Of a DNA stretch of 20,000 bases, positions 1,727 through 19,732 are shown one piece after another; within the stretch, counting starts at the first letter, position 1, and every line of letters begins with the position of its first letter. The DNA lies in the IMG/VR virus record IMGVR_UViG_3300004805_000005; one strand, 5' to 3'. The translations under genes were made by a program, and so were the position numbers. The notes under the pieces are model-generated. The model was not told where the DNA came from and did not search any database. It was given only the letters and a program-made list of their open reading frames with translations. The stretch comes from an uncultured virus (IMG/VR IMGVR_UViG_3300004805_000005) (taxonomy: Duplodnaviria; Heunggongvirae; Uroviricota; Caudoviricetes).

Positions 1727-2326
1727 TCAGATCAATTGCATATCTAGCTGATTAAATATAAATTCAAACGAACACTCAATTTCTTCTGGATCTCTGTAAC
1801 TATATTCATAACTTCCAAGTTTTGTGACAAAACAACTGGTAAAAGTAAACTCAACTTTTTTATTGTTATATTCATCTAAGGCAAATACTGTTATAGGTGT
1901 AGTATAGTCATATAACGTCTTTGGCATTTGTTCAGGATATTCACCAGCTTTAAATATATTAGGTCCACCATAGGTGCTTGCTAGTGGATCGTTCAATAGT
2001 TGTAACCATTTCCATATTAACCAATAATTTTTGAATTCATTATCAACGGAGAATTTAACAGTAACTGGTTCATATGCAGGACGATCAAACGAGGTTACAT
2101 TATAATTTTGCCCAGAATAATGTAATTGATTCGCATTTACTTGGATTGTTGGTATATTGATACTGTAAATAGAAAACTGCATACTATCTAAATTTATGAA
2201 TTTGTTTTCTCTGACACTTTTTGAATTTATTGTCTTCAAAATGTTAGGAATCGTAAGGATAAGTTGGAATTTATCCTTACGAGCTTTATTCAGGGATGCT
2301 TGAATTATGTTATTTTGGTCAGACAT
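1727..2326 (-). CDS. Tail tube terminator / tail completion protein (T4 gp3-like)
   Basis: YEPVTVKFSVDNEFKNYWLIWKWL and ITVFALDEYNNKKVEFTFTSCFVTKLGSYEYSY..DPEEIEC resemble T4 gp3 as recalled (YDPLIVRFIVDEELKSW..., ITLYILD...VSDLSEVEFSY); tail-tube fold; adjacent to the sheath gene. Confidence 0.72.
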   Translation of the reverse strand: MSDQNNIIQASLNKARKDKFQLILTIPNILKTINSKSVRENKFINLDSMQFSIYSINIPTIQVNANQLHYSGQNYNVTSFDRPAYEPVTVKFSVDNEFKNYWLIWKWLQLLNDPLASTYGGPNIFKAGEYPEQMPKTLYDYTTPITVFALDEYNNKKVEFTFTSCFVTKLGSYEYSYRDPEEIECSFEFIFNQLDMQLI

Positions 2327-2329
2327 CTG

Positions 2330-2746
2330 TTACCCCAAATCAGTTGGACCTGCGTGTACTTCATCTGTATTATCAGATTCCATGCCATCCATATCTGCCG
2401 ATTCTGGTTCTGCTCCATCGTATTCACTTAAATATTTCTCTAATGCTTGATATAATCCAGTCTCGTCCCCTTCAAGAGTAGACAACAAATCACTAACCGA
2501 CATGCTTAGAATCTGATTACTGAAAGATTCATGATCTTCGGTCACTACCGATTCTTTAATCTTCTTCTTTTTGCCCTTGAGCCAAGGTGGAAGACTCTTC
2601 TTTTTCTTTCCGCCTTTCTTTTCATCCTTCTTGTCTTCGTCCTTGTCTTCTTTCTTATTCTTAAGCCAAGGTGGCAAACCTTTCTTTTTTTCTGTTATAA
2701 GCGATTCCATATACGCACCAAAAATCTTATCTTCGTCAATTCTCAT
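2330..2746 (-). CDS. Hypothetical highly charged protein, probable head-internal/core protein
   Basis: AGGAGA SD; N-terminal AYxxxLxxE leader; duplicated Lys-rich LPPWLK motif; acidic C-terminus. Confidence 0.6.
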   Translation of the reverse strand: MRIDEDKIFGAYMESLITEKKKGLPPWLKNKKEDKDEDKKDEKKGGKKKKSLPPWLKGKKKKIKESVVTEDHESFSNQILSMSVSDLLSTLEGDETGLYQALEKYLSEYDGAEPESADMDGMESDNTDEVHAGPTDLG

Positions 2747-2757
2747 AATGTATTCTC

Positions 2758-3084
2758 CTATTTAAACTGCAATCTTTTCTTTATATTTTCTAATGCAGTA
2801 TTTATTTCAGAATACTTACTAGCATCAAAGTTCATTTTATCTAAATCTTCTTCCAACTCAGTAATATATGAGGTTATATTGTTTTTGAATTGTTCAATCT
2901 TGGTCATTCTATATGTAGTTTTAGTCGCTTGTGCGGTGTCCTTGAGTCCTTTAACGAAAGCCTGGCCACCAGCTTTAGCGGCTTGTCCAGCAGCTTTTAT
3001 ATTATCGAATATTCCTTCATTTACATTCTGTTCTTTAAGTACACTGTAATATGCGTTTTGTAGATCTAGTTTATCGTTATTCAT
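2758..3084 (-). CDS. Hypothetical protein, probable virion-internal protein; paralog of 3084..3785
   Basis: Start overlaps the upstream stop; leader DLQNAYYSVLKE...NEGIFDNIKA. Confidence 0.65.
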   Translation of the reverse strand: MNNDKLDLQNAYYSVLKEQNVNEGIFDNIKAAGQAAKAGGQAFVKGLKDTAQATKTTYRMTKIEQFKNNITSYITELEEDLDKMNFDASKYSEINTALENIKKRLQFK

Positions 3085-3785
3085 TACATTCCTTCTCTTA
3101 TAATTTGAGCGTTAGTTTGTTTACAAAAGTTTTTAAAACTTGAACATGCTTCTGGCAAGTTATCATATGGAGCATCTTTCCTTCTTTTTGATAACATTCT
3201 TTCTTTGATTTTGTCTCTATATCTCTTAGATCTTAATGCCTTTAGTTTCTTTTTTCTATCTTCTTTTCGAAGTTGTTCTCTGGTATTCTTTTTAGGTGCT
3301 GGTGCTGATACTTTAGGTGCTGGTGCTGATACTTTAGGTGCTGGTGCTGGTGCTGATACTTTAGATAATGGTGGAGGTTGAGACATATTTGGTGGTGTAT
3401 TGGCTGATGGTGGAGTTATTTTACGCAAACCACTAATCAACTTATTAAGATTTTGTAGAATATCGGCTATGTTTGGATCTTCTTTAGATGCATTCTGAAG
3501 ATCGTCGGAAATATTGTTCATCTCTGTATTGGCCTTTTCTATGAAATCATTTATTCTAGTAGAAAATGCCTGTGTGTTAGCCGCTTTCCCAACATCACCA
3601 GAACCAGCTACAAAAGTTCCTTTTATACCAGAACTCCCCTTTTCGCCTGACCACATGTTTTTAAATCCGGCCCCTATTTGTTTAGCTCCGGCTTTAAGTC
3701 CTTGGGCATTGGCTTTAAATCGGTCAAACATACCCTCTTCGAGTATTTTTGTATAAATATCTTCAAGATCTTTGTTTTTATTCAT
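3084..3785 (-). CDS. Hypothetical protein with Pro/Ala-rich linker and basic C-terminus, probable virion-internal protein
   Basis: Leader DLEDIYTKILEEGMFDRFKA; KVSAPAP repeats; AGGA SD and late-type motif upstream. Confidence 0.65.
   Translation of the reverse strand: MNKNKDLEDIYTKILEEGMFDRFKANAQGLKAGAKQIGAGFKNMWSGEKGSSGIKGTFVAGSGDVGKAANTQAFSTRINDFIEKANTEMNNISDDLQNASKEDPNIADILQNLNKLISGLRKITPPSANTPPNMSQPPPLSKVSAPAPAPKVSAPAPKVSAPAPKKNTREQLRKEDRKKKLKALRSKRYRDKIKERMLSKRRKDAPYDNLPEACSSFKNFCKQTNAQIIREGM
3291..3364. repeat. Coding tandem repeat, 21-nt unit TTTAGGTGCTGGTGCTGATAC (two exact units, one 27-nt expanded unit, one partial)
   Basis: Read directly; encodes KVSAPAP(AP) repeats on the minus strand. 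Confidence 0.9.
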
Positions 3786-10632: not shown

Positions 10633-10718
10633 TAGCAGTAAGAACATCAACTAGTAATCGATGTTCAACCACTAGGGAACTAATGGCTGTCCTGCTAGAG
10701 ATACTTATAGGGAACGTA

Positions 10719-11840
10719 ATGAAATCAATCAAAATAAAGCTCTTAGACCAAAATTCTTCCAAAACCAATAAGCTTCTTTCTATTTTATCTGATCTTGGAT
10801 TGATTTCAAAAGCGTATCTTCCAATAAGACACAAAGAGATTCAAGACAAAACTTATCTACCATTCAAAGAACATTATTCGAACTTTCGTGTCTTATATCC
10901 TTCTATGAACTCTGGCGTTATACAATCCCATCTTCGATCATTGGATTCTTCTATCAAAATCTATATCGGTTGGTGTAAGAAGAAACATAAGCTGGTTTCT
11001 TTTCCTGATCACATTAAAACGTCTATTCCTCTTCGAAACGATATGTTTTCATTTGAATACAACGAAGAAACCAAAACATTTGACGCATGGCTAAAATTCC
11101 TCCGTCTATACTTTCCTCTATCTCTTTGCTCATATCACAAAAAAGCACTACAAGACATGGAATCTATTTCAGATTCTTCCATTATCAAACACAACGGAAC
11201 CTTATATCTTCGATTGGTCTTCAAAACAAAGGAAAAGACTATTTCTACTAACAAATCCATAGGAATAGATATTGGAATAGCCAAACCAATAGTCTGCTCG
11301 GATGGAAAGCAATTCGGCTCTGGTCGATTTATCAAACACAAGAAACTTGAATTTGGTAAAAAGAGAGCCAGAAACCAATCTAAGAAAGAAGCAATTCTAC
11401 AAACACAATCTCGATGGACAAACGATTTGAATCATAAACTCTCCCGTGAGTTGGTCGACTATTGCCTGTCTCAAGACATAGACGTTCTAGGTCTTGAGAA
11501 GTTGGAAGGCACTCAGCTATCAAACAGGAGATTCAGGAAGTACAATTGGGCATTCAAGGACTTACTCAGTAAGATAACCTATAAGGCCGAATTGGCTGGA
11601 CTGAGAGTCATAAGTGTTGACCCCAGAGGAACGAGTCAGACTTGTTCTTGCTGTGGTCTGAAGGATAAGACCAACAGGATTTCTCAAAGCCTATACGTAT
11701 GCTCGTGTGGGTCTGTGATGAATGCTGACATCAATGCGGCTAAAAACATTCAACGCCTTTCGACGTTGAATGGGTCACAAATGAATCTGACCAACGGATG
11801 CCTTGTACCGGAAACCCAGCAATCTTTAGTGGCTGGGTAG
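10719..11840 (+). CDS. tnpB: RNA-guided endonuclease TnpB
   Basis: RuvC-I IGIDIG, RuvC-II GLEKL, zinc finger TSQTCSCCG...CSCG, RuvC-III NADINAAKNI; D/E/D triad intact. Likely start MKSIKIKL at 10719 (AGGGA SD). Confidence 0.92.
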   Translation: MKSIKIKLLDQNSSKTNKLLSILSDLGLISKAYLPIRHKEIQDKTYLPFKEHYSNFRVLYPSMNSGVIQSHLRSLDSSIKIYIGWCKKKHKLVSFPDHIKTSIPLRNDMFSFEYNEETKTFDAWLKFLRLYFPLSLCSYHKKALQDMESISDSSIIKHNGTLYLRLVFKTKEKTISTNKSIGIDIGIAKPIVCSDGKQFGSGRFIKHKKLEFGKKRARNQSKKEAILQTQSRWTNDLNHKLSRELVDYCLSQDIDVLGLEKLEGTQLSNRRFRKYNWAFKDLLSKITYKAELAGLRVISVDPRGTSQTCSCCGLKDKTNRISQSLYVCSCGSVMNADINAAKNIQRLSTLNGSQMNLTNGCLVPETQQSLVAG

Positions 11841-11916: not shown

Positions 11917-12762
11917 CTACACATTATCGAATACACCAGCACCGGGTTTCCCCATCGTGCCCTTGACATCAGCCTTTTGACTCATCTTAGGACCAAGATT
12001 TGTCTTCCTAGCTGCACTTAACTTGCCATCTGCGGCACCCTTTCCGGGACCACCAGTAGCACTAGCCTTCTTACCAGAAGCCTTAAATGCAGACTGAACC
12101 TTATTGTTCTTGGCTTGCATCTTCTTTACTGTATTCTTGAAAGGCTTCATCTTAGCCTGAACCGACTCGTGGGTCAGTGCAGCGGGGGGCATCTCTTGTC
12201 CACCTTCTTCACCAGCTTCTTCACCAGCTTCTCCACCCATCTCTTCGCCTTCTTCGCCTTCTTCGCCTTCTTCCGACTCGGCGTCTGCATCGTATGCGCC
12301 TAACTTATCAGCAATCTCAGTCAACGAATCGATAACCATACGGAGTTCTGTAGCAATATCAACTTCATCAGAAGTCTCGTCTCCACCATCACCATCCGAA
12401 GGAAAGTCACCACTCTCGTCATCGAACTCGGTATCCCCAGTCTTCTCAAGGGGACTTTCATCACTGGCCATTTCCGACCCATCCTCTTCTTCTACAATCT
12501 GTTTCTTAAATAAACTATCAAACTTACTTTTTGGTAACATATTAGATAACTCCCTTGATTCTGTTTTGATCTTTCCGTGACCGGGATTGATCTTAGTATC
12601 GCCTTCGGCTGGTTTCTTGATTCCAGCCTTCTCGGGTCCACCCTGAGATGCTTTCTTTAGTTCACCCATAGCAGCGGTGCCGGGCTTGAGGTTGGTCTTT
12701 ACAGTACCTTCCTTTGATTCTGAAATAACTTGTGCATATGCCAATTCTAAACCATCTTTCAT
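11917..12762 (-). CDS. Low-complexity basic/acidic/basic protein, probable prohead core/scaffold or internal protein
   Basis: Own late-type promoter, AAGGAG SD and terminator; leader LELAYAQVISE; very acidic centre; several I/L-x-E sites; GC-richer than neighbouring genes. Confidence 0.6.
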   Translation of the reverse strand: MKDGLELAYAQVISESKEGTVKTNLKPGTAAMGELKKASQGGPEKAGIKKPAEGDTKINPGHGKIKTESRELSNMLPKSKFDSLFKKQIVEEEDGSEMASDESPLEKTGDTEFDDESGDFPSDGDGGDETSDEVDIATELRMVIDSLTEIADKLGAYDADAESEEGEEGEEGEEMGGEAGEEAGEEGGQEMPPAALTHESVQAKMKPFKNTVKKMQAKNNKVQSAFKASGKKASATGGPGKGAADGKLSAARKTNLGPKMSQKADVKGTMGKPGAGVFDNV

Positions 12763-12866: not shown

Positions 12867-13523
12867 ATGAAAAAACAAATAACGGCTGGAATTAACAACG
12901 ATGATCTCGATTATGACCAAACATATCTAAGAAATAAGCGTCTACCTAAGGCAGACGTAGAGTTTACATGGACACCAGAAATGGTGGCAGAGATCAAGAA
13001 ATGTACGGAAGACGTACAATATTTTGCAAGTAATTATTTCTATATCGTAACAAGTGATGATGGTAAACAAAAAATTAAATTGTATACTGTACAGAAACGT
13101 GCGTTAAAAGCCCTGCAAAAATATAGATTTAATATCATAAATGCATCCCGACAAACTGGAAAAACAACGCTAATGACAATTTATGCTCTTTGGATGACTT
13201 GTTTCGAGGAATATAAACGTGTTGTTATTGTCGCTAACAAGGAAAATACCGCTATTATGATTCTAAGGCGTATTGCCTTGGCCTATGAAGAGCTTCCAAA
13301 CTGGCTAAAACCCGGAGCAGTTCAGTATGGAAAGAAAGAAATCATATTCGGAAATCATTCAAGTATAGGTATTAGTACAACTACTGGATCGGCTGTAAGA
13401 GGAGACACGGTAAATTGTGTCGATGGAACAGGTATGGTCAACATAATAGATAACACTGGAATTATATATAATATACCATTAGAACTTCTTTCTCAAGTCG
13501 AAACCGTGAATATAAATGTGTAA
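12867..13523 (+). CDS. terL: Large terminase (gp17-like) fragment 1: N-terminal ATPase part (183 aa) plus split-intein IntN1 (35 aa, from 13416)
   Basis: Q motif LYTVQ, Walker A SRQTGKTT, ANK...YEELPNWL, AVRG; then CVDGTGMVNI...IPLELL, an intein block-A-like tail. Confidence 0.93.
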   Translation: MKKQITAGINNDDLDYDQTYLRNKRLPKADVEFTWTPEMVAEIKKCTEDVQYFASNYFYIVTSDDGKQKIKLYTVQKRALKALQKYRFNIINASRQTGKTTLMTIYALWMTCFEEYKRVVIVANKENTAIMILRRIALAYEELPNWLKPGAVQYGKKEIIFGNHSSIGISTTTGSAVRGDTVNCVDGTGMVNIIDNTGIIYNIPLELLSQVETVNINV

Positions 13524-13529
13524 TTTATA

Positions 13530-13541
13530 TAAGTATATGTA
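13530..13541 (+). promoter_or_regulatory. Late-promoter-like motif TAAGTATATGTA followed by AGAGG SD for terminase fragment 2
   Basis: Fits TAARTA-N4-TA in the 27-nt gap between fragments 1 and 2. Confidence 0.5.
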
Positions 13542-13550
13542 GAGGTTAAT

Positions 13551-15188
13551 ATGTTAGCAGATATAATAAATAATTCAAACAATCATAGTATAATTGCGTT
13601 TATAAAACATAATAAAGAATTGCAAAATGAATTAATAGACAAAACAAAATATTTAAACAATTTCTATGTTTATAGAGACATAACACAAAGATTATATCAT
13701 TATATGAATGATATTAAAATCATACCCAGAGATAAACATGGATGGTATAAAAAATTTGAATCTTTAGATAATGGGTACGGAGAAAAGTTACAGCCAGTTA
13801 GACTCGGAGAATTTAGCAAACTATCTGTACAGGATATAACAAATTATATATGTAGTGTGGAAAGCATTCCATCAGATACATATTTGATAGAATTTATTAA
13901 AAATAAAACCAATTTCCTAGATCCATACAATCCATCGATTCCATTAAGATTATCATATATAAAAGAAAATATCAATCATCCTATATTTACTACCGAAAAA
14001 CACACCACATTACTAAAACCAACAAGAAAACCTAAAAAATATATTATAGATAATTATAGACAATATCTAGCAGAAGATAATAAAATATTGTTCGTAAAAA
14101 AATGGTTGTTGTCTACTGGATCACACCGAAAAAGAATAACAAAATCAATAAAAGCTATCCCTATGATATGTGATTATATCAACGCATTTGCAATAGAACA
14201 TAAATTAGATATTACAGACTATTTTCAAATATCATATCATATGGTATATAATATAACTACATATCCAAATTGTTCTTGCTGTGGAAAGAGTATCGATAAG
14301 AAAAGGTTTAATTCACACTATTGTGCATATCCAAAAACATGTTCTATGTACTGTAATAATATATTAAGAGAAAACATACAGAAAAGACTCATAGCCAATA
14401 AAACCAACAGCGGTAATTTTAATACCAATATTGGGAAAAACGAAGAATATCTATTGAGACTGATATCTAAACTTAAGAAATTAAATATAACAAAAACCCA
14501 TAGAATTGGATCGTATTTCGTAGATGGCATAGATATAGATAAACATATATGCATCGAAGTACAGGAAAAATATCATCTATATAAAAATAGGTTTGAAAAG
14601 GATAAAACAAAATTTGAACACATTATTATAAATGGATATAATATTTTATGTGTATTTGATCTAACTGGCATCAATGAAAAGGGATTAACATACCTAAAAT
14701 ATATAGAATATTTTAAAAATAAATATAATGAAAAGATTACATTTATTAGTATTCTACCATCCAAAACAAAAATATTAACACAGAACGGTTGGAGTATATT
14801 CTGTGGTATAAAAAAATCAAACATACCACAAAATACAATAACAATACAAAGCAAAAACAATCAAATAACATGTACACCAAAACATTTACTTTTATGTAAT
14901 GAAAAGTTCATATCCGCAAAGGATATTAAGGTAGGGGACGTACTAGATTCCTTCGATGACATTAATAAAAATAAAATAATTAATATCCATAATACAACCG
15001 AAAGAATAGTTTATGATGTTATAGAAACTGAAGACAATACTTTTATTTATAATAATTTAATAATTCATAACTGTATAATTATTGATGAATGTCTTGGTGG
15101 AAGTGAAACTATAGATATCAAAAACAAACAAACCGGAGAAATACGAACTATACCAATAGAACATCTTCTCTTGGAAGAATATAAATAA
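13551..15188 (+). CDS. terL: Terminase fragment 2: putative homing endonuclease (~400 aa), IntC1, 6-aa extein CIIIDE (Walker B, 15072-15089), IntN2 (32 aa)
   Basis: Zn finger CSCC...CSMYC and nuclease-like YFVDG...IEVQEKYH; KILTQNGW, block B TCTPKH, KVGD, block F VYDV, block G IHN|C; CIIIDE; then CLGGSETIDI...IPIEHL. Confidence 0.88.
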   Translation: MLADIINNSNNHSIIAFIKHNKELQNELIDKTKYLNNFYVYRDITQRLYHYMNDIKIIPRDKHGWYKKFESLDNGYGEKLQPVRLGEFSKLSVQDITNYICSVESIPSDTYLIEFIKNKTNFLDPYNPSIPLRLSYIKENINHPIFTTEKHTTLLKPTRKPKKYIIDNYRQYLAEDNKILFVKKWLLSTGSHRKRITKSIKAIPMICDYINAFAIEHKLDITDYFQISYHMVYNITTYPNCSCCGKSIDKKRFNSHYCAYPKTCSMYCNNILRENIQKRLIANKTNSGNFNTNIGKNEEYLLRLISKLKKLNITKTHRIGSYFVDGIDIDKHICIEVQEKYHLYKNRFEKDKTKFEHIIINGYNILCVFDLTGINEKGLTYLKYIEYFKNKYNEKITFISILPSKTKILTQNGWSIFCGIKKSNIPQNTITIQSKNNQITCTPKHLLLCNEKFISAKDIKVGDVLDSFDDINKNKIINIHNTTERIVYDVIETEDNTFIYNNLIIHNCIIIDECLGGSETIDIKNKQTGEIRTIPIEHLLLEEYK

Positions 15189-15189
15189 C

Positions 15190-15921
15190 ATGAAAACCAC
15201 AAAAAAAATAAACGAGTGGCAAATATTAACCCCAATAGGATGGTCAGATTTTGGTGGTGTAAAACAATCTAAACGAACAGATACCATTAAATTGATATTT
15301 TCTGATAACCGATCATTAGTTTGTACACCAGAACATAAAATAAAAAATATTAATGATATATTCATATCTGCCAAAGATTCACTAAACCAAAAAATATTAA
15401 CACAGAACGGAGAAACTACAATAGTTGATATAATCTATATGACAGATGATTTATTAGTATATGATATATTAAACGTAGACAAGCAAAATGAATTCTATAG
15501 CAGTAATATAGTGAGTCATAACTGTGCCCATATCGAAGACCATCTGATGAAAGATTTCTGGGCATCCGTTATTCCTACTATTTCATCATCCAAGAAAAGA
15601 ACAACAAAGATTTTCATGGTATCTACACCTAAAGGAACTGGAAATATATTCTATAAGATATTTCAAAAGGCTCTCAAAGAAGAATCCGACGAAAACATGA
15701 AATGGCATGCCGAAGAAATTCATTGGTATGATATTCCCGGAAGAGGAAAATTATGGAAAGCTGACATGGTAGAAGCTTTACATGGGGATAAGTTGCTTTT
15801 CGAACAAGAATTTAATTGTTGTTGTGCCTCTGGATGTACCGTTACTATATTAGATACTTTAACAAACCAACAAAAACAAGTTACATTAGATGAATTATAT
15901 AGAAAAATCCAAGAAAATTAA
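15190..15921 (+). CDS. terL: Terminase fragment 3: IntC2 (111 aa), extein (99 aa, 15523-15819), IntN3 (33 aa)
   Basis: ILTPIGW, CTPEH, VYDI, VSHN|C; extein CAHI...IPTISS...STPKG (coupling motif)...HWYDIPGR...FEQEFNC; then CCASGCTVTI...VTLDELY. Confidence 0.92.
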   Translation: MKTTKKINEWQILTPIGWSDFGGVKQSKRTDTIKLIFSDNRSLVCTPEHKIKNINDIFISAKDSLNQKILTQNGETTIVDIIYMTDDLLVYDILNVDKQNEFYSSNIVSHNCAHIEDHLMKDFWASVIPTISSSKKRTTKIFMVSTPKGTGNIFYKIFQKALKEESDENMKWHAEEIHWYDIPGRGKLWKADMVEALHGDKLLFEQEFNCCCASGCTVTILDTLTNQQKQVTLDELYRKIQEN

Positions 15922-15932
15922 ACGGAACCCAA

Positions 15933-17108
15933 ATGAATAATAGATATAAAATTCTCACCCCCACAGGATTTCAACATTTTACAGGTATTCGTAAATTATC
16001 TGGAGAGTTGTATGAATTAAAAACTAATACTTGTACTATAAGCGCAACGAAATATCATCCATTTATGTGCAATGGAAACAAAACCCCCCTAGCTGCACTA
16101 TATTCTGGAGATGTTATAGATACTATCAATGGAACAGAAAACATCATTTCAATAACAAAACTACATAAGACAGATAATGTATATGATATTATTGGTGTTG
16201 AAAATGGTGAGATGTATTATTGTAATGATATTCTATCACATAATTGCTTTCTAGAAACAGGCGATTCAGCCATTGATATAGATCTGTTAAATGAATTAAC
16301 AGAAAAGTGTCGAGAACCTGAACATATATTCGAAGATGGTCACTATAAGGTATGGAGAGAGCCACAAGGAAACCATATCTATGGAATAGGCGTAGATGTA
16401 GGAGAAGGTATAGGAAAGGCCGCTTCGGTGGTACAAGTACTAGATTTTACAGACTTAACAGACATTCATCAAGTAGCTATGTACTCTGATCGGTATATTC
16501 ATCCTACTAGATTTGCTGGAATTATCAATCGAATCGCGCATCACTTTGGATGCCCACCCGTTTTAATCGAAAGAAATAACATAGGAAGCGAAGTTATTGC
16601 CATATTGAATGAAATTCATCATTATGATAATATTGTTGCCTGTAATCCAGAGTCTTTAGCCTATGGAGATATCAGGCCCGGAATCTTATCACATACTAAT
16701 ACTAAATTAAGCGGTGTGATGAACCTAAGATATTGGTTGAATATATCCAGAGTCGTTAATCTATATGATGCCGGAACGGTTCAGGAATTGAAAACCTTCG
16801 TCAGATATCCAAACGGATCTTGGAAGAAGAAACAAGGCGAAGATGTATTTGATGATAGAGTTATGGCTCTTGTATGGACACTATTTTTATTAGAGCCTGA
16901 TGTAGCTGAACGATATTATGATATTGTTGAGACGGATGATAATGGAAAACCACTAAAGATGGCGGCATATGTTATTCAACAAAATACTATGTTTAAATTA
17001 GATCCATTCTTCCAACAGACACCAAATGCTCCTATGCCTTCTTTCTTTAGTATGTCCCCTTCAGAAGATTTTGATGATCTGAGAAGAGAAGGATGGACAA
17101 GAGCATAG
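15933..17108 (+). CDS. terL: Terminase fragment 4: IntC3 (104 aa) plus nuclease domain (287 aa, from 16245)
   Basis: KILTPTGF, ATKYH, SGD, VYDI, LSHN|C; RNase H-like nuclease motifs IGVDVGEG, IERNN, DDRVMAL. Confidence 0.93.
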   Translation: MNNRYKILTPTGFQHFTGIRKLSGELYELKTNTCTISATKYHPFMCNGNKTPLAALYSGDVIDTINGTENIISITKLHKTDNVYDIIGVENGEMYYCNDILSHNCFLETGDSAIDIDLLNELTEKCREPEHIFEDGHYKVWREPQGNHIYGIGVDVGEGIGKAASVVQVLDFTDLTDIHQVAMYSDRYIHPTRFAGIINRIAHHFGCPPVLIERNNIGSEVIAILNEIHHYDNIVACNPESLAYGDIRPGILSHTNTKLSGVMNLRYWLNISRVVNLYDAGTVQELKTFVRYPNGSWKKKQGEDVFDDRVMALVWTLFLLEPDVAERYYDIVETDDNGKPLKMAAYVIQQNTMFKLDPFFQQTPNAPMPSFFSMSPSEDFDDLRREGWTRA

Positions 17109-17110
17109 TC

Positions 17111-17138
17111 TTGACTTTTATTAGAAGTATGTTAAGAT
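17111..17138 (+). promoter_or_regulatory. Sigma70-like promoter TTGACT-16-(TGn)TAAGAT
   Basis: Same -10 hexamer as at 6366; ATG 17145 follows 6 nt later. Confidence 0.6.
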
Positions 17139-17144
17139 ATTGAA

Positions 17145-17396
17145 ATGAACGAAGAACAAAAACCAATCGAATATCACCACGAGCTAACTGCAACCTTCAA
17201 GAGCAATATGGCCCCTCTTTGGCTCGTATTCAATAACAATATTTTCAACACACAAAACATTACTAATATCGAACGAATGCCAAACGGTGTGTTTATATAT
17301 ACAATTGATAGAAAAATACATACAGTAGAAGTAACAGATGTTAAAACTGTGTGGGAATCTCTACAGAAGGTGTTCTCTGAAGGTGTTACGGGTTAA
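17145..17396 (+). CDS. Hypothetical protein (83 aa)
   Basis: Fills the gap between terL and the convergent kamA; has its own promoter; stops overlap as TTAA. Confidence 0.65.
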   Translation: MNEEQKPIEYHHELTATFKSNMAPLWLVFNNNIFNTQNITNIERMPNGVFIYTIDRKIHTVEVTDVKTVWESLQKVFSEGVTG

Positions 17397-19732
17397 TTCA
17401 CTCTAGGATACTCGCTTATTCCACCAAATAGATTTTGGAAAATAACAGTATCCTTTTTTATTTCCTTTATATAGTTAGGAAGAAGCGGTATTTTTCCCTT
17501 TCCATCCTGTAGATCAACAATAAAAGACGGAACGCCTAATCCACTTATGTGCTTTCTTAAATAATCCATGACTTCTAATCCCTTTTCGATTGAAGTTTGG
17601 AAGTGATTCGTGCCTGTTACCTTGTCACAGCTAAAGATATAGTAAGGTCTAACCCTGAACGTCAGAAGTTTCCTGCATAATTCAGCCATCACTACAGGAT
17701 CATCGTTGATTCCTTTAAGCAATACACTTTGATTGTTAACTGGAATTCCCTTTTCTATCATCTTCAAACAGGCTTTCTTAGATTCTTCTGTTAGTTCATT
17801 AGGATGATTGAAGTGTGTATTCACGAATATAGGATGATATTTGTTTATCATGTTGACTAACTCACTGGTAATCCTTTGTGGCATGACAACCGGAGTACGA
17901 GTTCCAATACGAATGATCTCAACAGATTTAACAGATCGGATCTTGGAGATTATCTTCTCCAATTTAGAAGTAGACATGGTAAAAGCATCTCCACCAGAGA
18001 TGATAACATCTTTAATTTCGCTATGTAGGGTTAGATATTCTACTATTTTTTCTAATTGGCAATCTGTTAAATGATAATCTTTAGAACCGGCTACTCTTTT
18101 TCTAGTGCAATTATGGACAGACGCAAATTCTGCAAGATAGCTTTCGTCGCCTGTAACAGAAAGATCATAGAAAATTTCTTTGACGAATGGTTTTCTTTTT
18201 AAAATGTCTGATACTCTGCAAAAAATATAGCCATTATGTATAAAGGATTCGGATTTTGAAGAAATGGTATCTTTTTGTATACCAAGCCATTTATTGTAAC
18301 CATTTTCATCAAGTATTCTTATTTTATGCATTATTTTTAGGTTGTTTAGTTTTCTTCCATTAATACATACATCTGTTCTATTTTCTTCTTGGTGATAAAT
18401 AGAAGGCATATATCCAAGAGAAACCAACAACATAAAAATTTGACTAGAAAGATTTTCAGAAACAGTATTAAATTCAATAGATTTTGCTTTTGTATGAATT
18501 TTATGTTTATTAGAGAAATATCCATCTCCATCCAGCATTCCGTCAAGTAATTTCTTCTTAAAGCCATCTGTTGCAAAATTTATGATGCTTTCCGATATTG
18601 TTTTTTTATCAGAATATCTGCCGAACAAACTTTCAATTTCTTTGGCTAAGTCTGCATTATAAATCCTTACACAACAATTTGATTTGTTTTTATTTGTCTT
18701 TATTGTTATTTTACCAAGTTTTTGTCGTTTTACTATAATTTCAATTTTTCTTGCCAGTGTTTTTTCTTCTGTTTTGTTTAGCGAAAATCTAATGCATATT
18801 GGTTTGCCATTTTTTCTTTTTGGGATATCTCCTTCTGCTACATATAGTCCAAATAAATACGCCATCTCTTCGTTTTCGTATAGTTTATAATTTTGTAATG
18901 GCAAATTGTTTGTTTTTGGAATTGGAATACAAACATAGTCTCCTATTTCTATTTCGGAAGCATTTATAAAATTAGGTTTGAACTCTGTAACTCTATTAGG
19001 ATGTCTTTTCGCACATTGTTTTCTATTTGGCTTACAGACGCATTTTTCTCCACAATTACATAGAATATCTTTTCTTTTTAAGATTAAGAATGGATGCTCC
19101 TGTGTTGTTTCTATTTTTTGACTTCTTGATGTTTTTAATATTAAAACATCTTTCTTATATGTCCTATTAAACACATCATATACAGTACCAATTCCACCAG
19201 TATGTGTAATAACTGTATCGCCAATAATTATATCTTTAATATCCTTTTGTGTAAAATTGGACATTGTTATTTTTGTTTTGTCGCATAGAGAATGCCTACA
19301 ATACATGCTACATTGGCTCGTAGAGACAATTAACGCCCTGTCTGGGTATCTATGCACCAATCCATCCATAACAGTATCCTCTTCCTCGTGAAGGGGATCG
19401 TTGGATAAGAAGCTAGGATTATCTAATTCCAGAGGATTAGGAATGCATTGGCTGAAAATAGGATCACTATAATCAAACTTTCTTATCAGAGAGAAATAGT
19501 AAGGAGTTATTGCCAAGGGAAAACTCTGTTCGGTTTTTGATATTTCTTCAGAAAGAGAGAAGTGTTCCTTGCTCAATAGATTTTTCAGCCCATCAGAAGA
19601 CTTTATTCGGTTCTTAAGTTGCCATCTCCAGTCGCCCCAACCTTTCGATTGAGGCTTTCTACTACCGGGTTCTTCCGGTTCATTAATGTTGTCTATATTA
19701 GTTAAATTCGGCGTATCAATTTTGTGTATCAT
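17393..19732 (-). CDS. kamA: KamA-family radical SAM enzyme (lysine 2,3-aminomutase-like), intein-containing; ~385 aa after splicing
   Basis: WxDWRWQLKNRI, ITPYY, DPLxEE, GLVHRYPDR, CSMYCRH|CTRKR, ISGGD, RIGTRTPVVMPQRI, THFNHP, NQSVLLKGIND, PYY, and GKIP (PLP lysine); AAGGAG SD. Confidence 0.92.
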   Translation of the reverse strand: MIHKIDTPNLTNIDNINEPEEPGSRKPQSKGWGDWRWQLKNRIKSSDGLKNLLSKEHFSLSEEISKTEQSFPLAITPYYFSLIRKFDYSDPIFSQCIPNPLELDNPSFLSNDPLHEEEDTVMDGLVHRYPDRALIVSTSQCSMYCRHSLCDKTKITMSNFTQKDIKDIIIGDTVITHTGGIGTVYDVFNRTYKKDVLILKTSRSQKIETTQEHPFLILKRKDILCNCGEKCVCKPNRKQCAKRHPNRVTEFKPNFINASEIEIGDYVCIPIPKTNNLPLQNYKLYENEEMAYLFGLYVAEGDIPKRKNGKPICIRFSLNKTEEKTLARKIEIIVKRQKLGKITIKTNKNKSNCCVRIYNADLAKEIESLFGRYSDKKTISESIINFATDGFKKKLLDGMLDGDGYFSNKHKIHTKAKSIEFNTVSENLSSQIFMLLVSLGYMPSIYHQEENRTDVCINGRKLNNLKIMHKIRILDENGYNKWLGIQKDTISSKSESFIHNGYIFCRVSDILKRKPFVKEIFYDLSVTGDESYLAEFASVHNCTRKRVAGSKDYHLTDCQLEKIVEYLTLHSEIKDVIISGGDAFTMSTSKLEKIISKIRSVKSVEIIRIGTRTPVVMPQRITSELVNMINKYHPIFVNTHFNHPNELTEESKKACLKMIEKGIPVNNQSVLLKGINDDPVVMAELCRKLLTFRVRPYYIFSCDKVTGTNHFQTSIEKGLEVMDYLRKHISGLGVPSFIVDLQDGKGKIPLLPNYIKEIKKDTVIFQNLFGGISEYPRVN
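18110..19291 (-). mobile_element. Contiguous intein (394 aa) with LAGLIDADG homing endonuclease
   Basis: Begins SLCDKTKI (Ser1); IGDTVITHTG; block B TTQEHPF; LAGLIDADG motifs LFGLYVAEG and LLDGMLDGDG; block F FYDLSV; ends VHN|C. Confidence 0.93.

Follow-up and report, generated by a model that had tools for sequence, protein, structure and literature searches.

The large terminase subunit (TerL) of phages is a known host of atypically split inteins, in which the N-terminal intein piece (IntN) is short and the C-terminal piece (IntC) is long. Published IntN/IntC lengths are 25/104 for AceL-TerL, 37/115 for GOS-TerL, and 30/104 for Cat, according to a review (PMC11766414). As published, such terminases carry one split intein each. 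Here, we describe a terL gene that appears to carry three. It lies in a 20,000-nucleotide stretch of DNA, referred to below as the window, from an uncultured, freshwater, T4-like phage (IMG/VR record IMGVR_UViG_3300004805_000005), where it is broken at three points into four open reading frames (ORFs), F1 to F4. A preliminary description, made from the sequence alone, had placed the four ORFs and the three breaks, and both the coordinates and the junction motifs were reproduced by our analysis.

Like AceL-TerL, GOS-TerL, and Cat, the inteins of the window reside in a phage TerL and are split in the same unusual way, and their Cys1/Cys+1 chemistry is that of AceL-TerL and Cat. Two of the insertion sites, a and b, flank the Walker B motif. 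The third, site c (NC/CFLE; here and below a slash marks a splice junction), apparently lies one residue downstream of the sites in the relative P0015 (SHN/CEFLGS) and in the CatC construct (...SH-A-C-E). Contiguous inteins are also found in the TerL of mycobacteriophages, where they are concentrated in the ATPase domain, near its P-loop, Walker B, and C-motif, and are known to splice (Kelley et al. 2016, PMC5050341). Those inteins occur one per protein in the Terminase_1/6 proteins of actinophages, whereas the ones described here are split and number three; TerL as a preferred intein host is common to both.

A second precedent is the fractured gene. Dassa et al. (2009) described phage genes broken within an intein, with an endonuclease between the two halves (PMC2677866). 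One of these, a "Terminase" locus, has an unusually placed break and a C part of 122 residues, and the Vsr-like endonuclease family was first predicted and defined in such genes. That report describes one break per locus and a free-standing endonuclease, and a further intein is represented only by the C-terminal part of an additional in-frame intein in DnaE-1. In contrast, our locus has three breaks; at break 1 a putative endonuclease is fused in frame to the intein C-piece (IntC1), and breaks 2 and 3 have no endonuclease, with 1 and 11 nucleotides between the ORFs. The locus acts like a fractured gene, but its layout is a variant that falls outside the strict definition. In its layout, the endonuclease-IntC fusion stands midway between fractured genes, whose endonuclease is free-standing, and classical inteins, in which it is nested. 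It also differs from the prototype of the Vsr-like EDxHD homing endonucleases, I-Bth0305I, which has an N-terminal DNA-binding region followed by a Vsr-like nuclease (Taylor et al. 2011, PMC3239194) and is intron-encoded and free-standing.

Fractured genes, and TerL inteins with a single atypical split, have thus been published; what sets the present locus apart from them is the presence of three splits in one natural gene and the endonuclease-IntC fusion. In the full-text literature, with subscription papers and supplements outside the scope of the search, no natural protein turned up that is assembled through two or more split inteins, and multi-intein ligation appeared only as engineering. 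Shi and Muir (2005) reportedly engineered tandem protein trans-splicing. In a design of this kind, a short central peptide carries the IntC of pair A at its N-terminus and the IntN of pair B at its C-terminus, and two orthogonal inteins place it between two larger fragments (Khoo et al. 2020, PMC7210297). F2 follows the same design in its C-terminal 150 residues. However, the engineered cassette is man-made, uses unrelated pairs, and involves two reactions, whereas that of the window is natural, with three related inteins and three predicted reactions.

A T4-type large terminase encoded in four pieces

Once the exteins (E1 to E4; Table 1) are joined, the host gene is, by sequence comparison, a T4-type large terminase, and no single fragment spans it. 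In a search of PHROG families, residues 18 to 183 of F1 matched a terminase large subunit (phrog_5989, E = 1.1e-44), as did E3 (phrog_2, E = 5.7e-8), and F4 also matched terminase PHROGs. Residues 133 to 317 of F4 matched the nuclease domain of RB49 TerL (3c6a, E = 2.6e-8) and T4 gp17 (3ezk, E = 1.3e-5). Walker A, Walker B, the STP coupling motif, and the nuclease were found in E1, E2, E3, and E4, respectively; the preliminary description had listed all four as intact. A tblastn search of phage genomes with F1 returned 2566 records, all below 60% identity, and the alignments to TerLs of T4-like cyanophages and others broke off close to residue 185, where E1 meets IntN1. No match to the locus was found by blastn among 50,697 phage records.

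Table 1. Features of the split terL locus in the window; intein and endonuclease assignments are predictions (aa, amino acids)
Feature	Position	Strand	Length	Remarks
ORF F1 (E1 + IntN1)	12867-13523	+	218 aa	
ORF F2 (homing endonuclease - IntC1 - E2 - IntN2)	13551-15188	+	545 aa	adaptor protein
ORF F3 (IntC2 - E3 - IntN3)	15190-15921	+	243 aa	
ORF F4 (IntC3 - E4)	15933-17108	+	391 aa	
Extein E1	12867-13415	+	183 aa	ATPase N-part; Walker A SRQTGKTT; ends ...GDTVN; 80% identical to L003
Extein E2	15072-15089	+	6 aa	CIIIDE = Walker B; CIIIDE also in uninterrupted L003 gene
Extein E3	15523-15819	+	99 aa	ATPase C-part; STP coupling motif (C-motif); ends ...FEQEFNC; phrog_2
Extein E4	16245-17105	+	287 aa	RNase H-like nuclease/translocation domain; starts CFLETG; 71% identical to L003
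IntN1	13416-13520	+	35 aa	site a, just before Walker B; Cys-initiated; homologous pieces in L007 and L012
IntC1	14736-15071	+	~107-112 aa	ends IHN; without its own start codon
IntN2	15090-15185	+	32 aa	site b, just after Walker B; Cys-initiated
IntC2	15190-15522	+	111 aa	ends SHN
IntN3	15820-15918	+	33 aa	site c, in ATPase/nuclease linker; CCASGC...
IntC3	15933-16244	+	104 aa	ends SHN; P0015 37% identical
F2 N-terminal extension	13551-14735	+	~395 aa	Vsr-like/EDxHD-type putative homing endonuclease; in frame with IntC1
Putative nuclease core of F2	14418-14660	+		aa ~290-370

When the extein translations were joined by their coordinates in a script, the product was 183+6+99+287 = 575 aa long, the sum first given in the preliminary description. 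The colinearity with gp17 that had been claimed there also holds. The product aligned with the intact gp17 of Synechococcus phage S-BM3 at 35% identity over 518 residues (E = 2e-83) without a gap at any junction. The closest relative found, the IMG/VR contig L003, has an intact TerL of 577 aa, with which the product shared 74% identity over 556 aa in an alignment free of gaps. The intein-free L003 gene reads ...LN CIIIDE AAHIED... and ...EFNC AFLETG... at the corresponding positions, and two relatives that are intein-free at site c (L012 and P0008) read EFNCCFLETG, identical to the predicted ligation product. Because the junctions of intein-free relatives equal the predicted ligation products, the parse of the three consecutive Cys at junction 3 is settled. 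Starting that intein one Cys earlier or later was rejected: only FEQEFNC + CFLETG fits the length and sequence of L012, P0008, and L003, and a shifted parse also conflicts with the register of the IntN in P0007.

Among the loci recovered with E4, the parts corresponding to E1, the six codons of E2, E3, and E4 were contiguous in seven of nine (L003 to L006 and L009 to L011), one of which (L010) breaks off early in E4. The remaining two, the near-identical L007 and L008, are split at site a. A gene for a highly acidic protein lies upstream of terL on the opposite strand in the window, L003, L007, L012, and L015, and this shared neighbor makes the split locus syntenic with the intact terL of relatives. 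The protein itself (281 aa; window 11917-12762, minus strand) is a conserved neighbor with no family match.

These comparisons bear on the idea that the locus is a decaying, nonfunctional terL, with packaging left to another, intact terL or with the sequence belonging to a defective or satellite element. Our search for terL was confined to the window, and a gene for a TnpB-like transposase, 1 kb upstream, points to active mobile DNA nearby. Decay is nevertheless very unlikely in our judgment. No extein or intein piece has a disrupted frame and the catalytic motifs are all intact, the surrounding gene order matches that of the single terL in relatives, and E1 and E4 remain 71-80% identical to L003. 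Furthermore, the split points are kept in other genomes at 30-68% identity, which decay would not preserve.

Reproducibility of the junctions

The preliminary description had proposed to confirm the stops in raw reads; they were reproduced in assembled contigs of other sequencing runs. A Logan contig from run X1, which is possibly the source sample, covers 12931-17200 with 0 differences. Contigs from run X2, of another sample and study, cover 12944-13698, including junction 1, and 15872-17200, including junction 3, and a contig from run X4, of a third study, covers 15095-15252, including junction 2; again there were 0 differences. The stop/start junctions are genuine. What is directly observed thus comprises the anatomy of the locus and its homology, the exact positions of the junctions, and the fact that the DNA is reproducible.

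An assembly or sequencing artefact that conceals three contiguous mini-inteins is accordingly the explanation to which we give the least credence, and we regard it as extremely improbable. An insertion or deletion of 1-2 nucleotides could mimic the frame changes at junctions 2 and 3, and relatives do hold cis mini-inteins at these sites (L016 at site c, P0044 at site b). The independent contigs of X2 (junctions 1 and 3) and X4 (junction 2) match with 0 differences, however. Junction 1, moreover, has two in-frame stops and a 27-nucleotide spacer with a ribosome-binding site, and the C-pieces open with an ATG of their own where homologous stand-alone fragments begin.

The three split inteins

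The inserts are most likely class 1 inteins that are atypically split and have diverged within one family, and splicing is predicted for them from the following features. All three N-pieces start with Cys, the Cys1 nucleophile, and have the lengths given in the preliminary description. Our alignment likewise recovered the motifs that had been read in the C-pieces (ILTxxG[WF], TxxH, VYD, and HN/C) in all three. Block B is TPKH in IntC1, TPEH in IntC2, and TKYH in IntC3, with a His that is invariant in seven F3-type proteins. Block G together with the Cys at +1 reads IHN/C, SHN/C, and SHN/C in the same order. In each case, the break falls after block A, leaving an IntN of 32-35 aa and an IntC of 104-112 aa that carries block B.

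The suspected kinship of the C-pieces with atypically split TerL inteins was borne out by matches to the solved structure of a consensus engineered intein, CatC (6dsl_B). It was matched by IntC2 (E = 4.6e-7), by IntC3 (E = 7.2e-5), and by the IntC1 region of an alignment profile, A1, built from F2 and four homologues (E = 5.6e-7); the profile also matched the NrdJ-1, gp41-1, and VidaL inteins. The N-pieces recur in other genomes. The ORFs encoding the N-terminal part of TerL in L007 and L012 finish with an IntN1-like piece at site a, the tail of P0002 is 48% identical to IntN2 with a similar stop position, and the tail of P0007 is 68% identical to IntN3.

A recent duplication of one intein within terL was considered and rejected, given that the three are only 18-32% identical and no closer to one another than to the inteins of other genomes. 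Judging from these identities, the three inteins are related but old. The G+C content of the extein DNA is 36.6%, while that of the intein and endonuclease DNA is 26.8%, a lower value that fits inserted mobile DNA.

At site a, several C-pieces of relatives (among P0002, P0007, and L012) end HQ/C and one (L007) ends KN/C, not HN/C. A terminal Gln in an intein is a rare variant for the branch-resolution step.

Proposed assembly of the terminase

We consider it likely that the four polypeptides undergo three class 1 trans-splicing reactions that yield a TerL of 575 residues. This reading, already put forward in the preliminary description, is supported by the sequence comparisons. Under this proposal, terL would have been colonized at three sites by three diverged inteins of one family, each with a short IntN and a long IntC that bears block B. 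The four polypeptides would be co-expressed from one tightly packed gene row, and each IntN would dock on its cognate IntC to complete the HINT fold. Cys1, the TxxH block, the terminal HN, and the +1 Cys would then perform standard four-step splicing in trans. Three such reactions, in any order, would join E1 to E4 and leave Walker A, Walker B, the C-motif, and the nuclease domain intact. F2 and F3 would be bivalent. F2 would donate only CIIIDE, such that just 6 of its 545 residues, the Walker B motif, would enter the terminase and the remainder would be a by-product. The putative Vsr-like endonuclease of F2 probably mediates the spread of intein 1, by homing, to terL alleles that lack it, and inteins 2 and 3, which are without an endonuclease, look fixed.

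It is from the sequence that we infer expression, pairing specificity, splicing, and endonuclease activity. The gaps between F1 and F2, F2 and F3, and F3 and F4 are 27, 1, and 11 nucleotides, with F3 starting 1 nucleotide past the stop of F2 in a different frame. A terminator scan found no terminator-like site on the plus strand between 13019 and 17108; this and the short gaps fit co-expression. Promoter-like sites numbered 43 against 31.6 expected, a comparison that is uninformative in A+T-rich DNA. The conservation of the split points in diverged relatives supports the splicing of these inteins. A prediction of the complex formed by the F1 tail, IntC1-E2-IntN2, and IntC2 scored 0.53-0.55 compared with 0.38 for the control, and it provides no evidence either way.

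Alternatively, the four proteins could come together as a functional terminase while one or more of the breaks stay unjoined, with the intein halves acting only as tight dimerization modules, or only some of the inteins could still splice. There is a reported precedent in Aeh1 NrdA, a phage enzyme fractured by an endonuclease gene that works as a noncovalent assembly (PMC3045599), and the atypical block A of IntN1 (see below) would be in keeping with an intein that no longer splices. We nonetheless think this alternative improbable. All three inteins, and diverged relatives as well, retain the residues that serve only the chemistry (Cys1, TxxH, the terminal HN, and the +1 Cys). Moreover, an unspliced Walker B strand of six residues, held between two HINT domains, would be hard to fit into the ATPase core.

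Several observations argue against the trans-splicing proposal. Some concern the recognition of the parts. The Pfam model Intein_splicing (PF14890) scored below its cut-off of 35.8 bits in F2 (20.2 bits) and F4 (16.7 bits) and did not match F3; the homology of the pieces to inteins is seen instead in phmmer and hmmsearch matches to solved inteins. Terminase_6N in F1 also falls just below the Pfam cut-off (20.4 vs 22 bits). Block A of IntN1 reads CVDGTGMV, a deviation from the CVDGDTIV or CVGGNTIV of relatives. Read support takes the form of low-depth contigs (2-13x), not raw reads. Others concern the process. A clear Shine-Dalgarno-like sequence, AGAGG, lies upstream of F2 only, and two HINT folds must form on F2 only six residues apart. 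The three inteins are mutually homologous (28-32% identity among IntCs, 18-31% among IntNs), and the family can be promiscuous: according to the review PMC11766414, GOS-TerL accepts the IntN of AceL-TerL. It is therefore conceivable that mis-pairing skips Walker B or E3, and the orthogonality of the three pairs is presumed from sequence. Finally, a second, intact terL is possible elsewhere in the genome, given that the contig is recorded at up to 87,960 bp.

If the trans-splicing proposal is true, an essential phage protein would exist only after three separate trans-splicing reactions. We give roughly an even chance to a broader set of claims: that three mutually orthogonal, co-evolved split inteins operate in one cell, that they include a natural tandem trans-splicing cassette inserting the six-residue Walker B between two larger fragments, that assembly of the packaging ATPase depends on an adaptor that is also a homing endonuclease, which would tie active terminase to the expression of a selfish element, and that multi-split TerLs form a large unpublished class in environmental T4-like phages. 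Protein engineering needs orthogonal split inteins with a short IntN for multi-fragment ligation and internal labeling, and nature appears to supply three of them here within one family. In addition, the middle extein, at six residues, gives a measure of how close together two HINT domains may be able to sit. The system would also offer a way to follow the fracturing of genes by homing endonucleases and the fixation of the resulting fragments.

A putative Vsr-like endonuclease fused to IntC1

The preliminary description correctly identified IntC1, E2, and IntN2 in F2 but overlooked the extension of about 395 aa that precedes them, fused in frame to IntC1. Our comparisons point to a putative Vsr-like endonuclease. 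Profile A1 matched the catalytic domain of I-Bth0305I (3r3p_A, E = 2.3e-4), and the Pfam family DUF559 matched all five A1 members (best E = 8.9e-5), with the window's own F2 under the cut-off (15.4 vs 20.6 bits). Two F2 homologues are annotated by the Joint Genome Institute as "very-short-patch-repair endonuclease". A cluster of four Cys (aa 241-268) is invariant in the five sequences, as are E298, D325, H342, and D351; the EDxHD assignment is a reading of this alignment and not a structural one. A single-sequence AlphaFold2 model of F2 reached a predicted local distance difference test score (pLDDT) of 32, too low for use.

Residues 366 to 430 of F2 contain no ATG, GTG, or TTG codon, indicating that IntC1 is made as a fusion to the putative endonuclease. 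The same arrangement is seen in the four homologues of the extension (P0002 to P0005). P0002 (549 aa, 51% identical to F2) has the layout of F2 throughout, with a six-residue extein, CIILDE, followed by an IntN. In P0003 to P0005 (902-941 aa), the extension and IntC are followed by the whole remaining TerL. Searches of other collections yielded no relative among the 19 pattern matches of F2 in viral contigs or the 221 pattern matches of A1 in metagenome contigs.

Multi-split terminases in other phages

Judging from metagenomic gene calls, multi-split TerLs are frequent, and the layout found in the window is not a one-off. A full HMMER search with F3 returned 1801 representatives at E <= 0.001, the best 150 of which were classified with a hidden Markov model (HMM) of the C-piece and by blastp of the extein parts. 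These representatives were judged as proteins, and some may be truncated. Within the best 150, 29 (window included) have an IntC-type piece no more than 30 residues from the start, end 20-70 residues past E3, and lack E4. An IntC start combined with a tail of IntN length and no E4 marks these as internal TerL fragments, from genes with at least two split inteins. Another 14 have only such a tail, 76 have the IntC start without the tail, and 31 have neither. Most of these proteins (104) had a single HINT match; 34 had two, 9 had three, and 3 had none.

Layouts vary among these proteins. The F3 layout, IntC(b)-E3-IntN(c), recurs in six further 50% clusters (P0020, P0022, P0034, P0040, P0077, and P0094); identity is 30-38%, and the catalytic residues are invariant across the clusters with this layout. 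Other representatives have junctions at site c together with either site a or the P-loop; P0007, for example, is IntC(a)-E2E3-IntN(c). P0044 holds a cis mini-intein at site b. Three IntC-type HINT matches occur within one TerL fragment in each of P0036 (616 aa), P0052 (832 aa), and P0018 (1043 aa). P0036 also has an IntC start and an IntN tail, which implies four inteins in one terL.

Relatives with fewer inteins, which the preliminary description had proposed to look for, were recovered as loci: L003 has none, L007 and L012 have a single split, and L015 has two. In L015, the N-terminal TerL ORF ends in an IntN placed five residues after site b and is followed by a free ORF, an IntC-E3-IntN ORF, a free Vsr-like ORF, and an IntC, such that each of the two splits has a free-standing endonuclease gene. 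L016 has an IntC-type piece at the P-loop and is split at site a, where an endonuclease is fused to IntC. After IntC(a), the same ORF continues with an 11-aa extein, CICLDEAAFIE, and an IntN; the next ORF opens with an IntC, and within this ORF lies a cis intein at site c. The terL of L016 (2-4106) has intein pieces at four sites in all (P-loop, a, b', and c), the first of them cut by the start of the contig. A search of metagenome contigs with F3 recovered only L013, a single-split relative like L012. At least one HINT match was found in 12 of 91 related loci and none in 79 of 91, where 80 of the loci are the best 80 of about 600 or more pattern matches.

The internal fragments, together with L015 and L016, make the window less singular than was first judged. 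The novelty suggested in the preliminary description stands with respect to the literature searched, where no natural multi-split-intein protein was found; it does not extend to sequence data, where multi-split TerLs are frequent. Our results suggest that the window represents one member of a sizeable unpublished class of multi-split TerL. They also suggest that, in T4-like phages of fresh and marine waters, terL is a hot spot for inteins, with at least four sites (P-loop, a, b/b', and c) that alternate among empty, cis, and split states.

Other elements were noted in the single-split relatives. In L007 (3214-4404) and also in L008, the TerL N-fragment, which carries the site-a IntN, has a contiguous, Ala-initiated mini-intein at the Walker A lysine (GK/ALALDT...TSN/T), which may be of class 2/3 type; a free-standing GIY-YIG gene follows the fragment. 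L012, a phage contig of 238.8 kb, encodes a 520-aa protein (1779-3341) directly upstream of its split terL, with about ten tandem 'NQLTSLQGAPQTV.G.F.C' repeats. The window is without a counterpart of this protein.

Neighboring genes

A TnpB-like gene of the window (10683-11840, plus strand) lies within the phage structural and packaging region; its product has OrfB_IS605 and a Cas12f1-like TNB domain and matches a transposase family (phrog_506, E = 2.2e-44). Beside terL, at 17393-19732 on the minus strand, is a gene for a 779-aa lysine-2,3-aminomutase-like radical SAM protein with a full intein that includes a LAGLIDADG endonuclease. Its Pfam matches are LAM_C, Radical_SAM, LAGLIDADG_3, and Intein_splicing, making it a second intein-bearing gene near terL.

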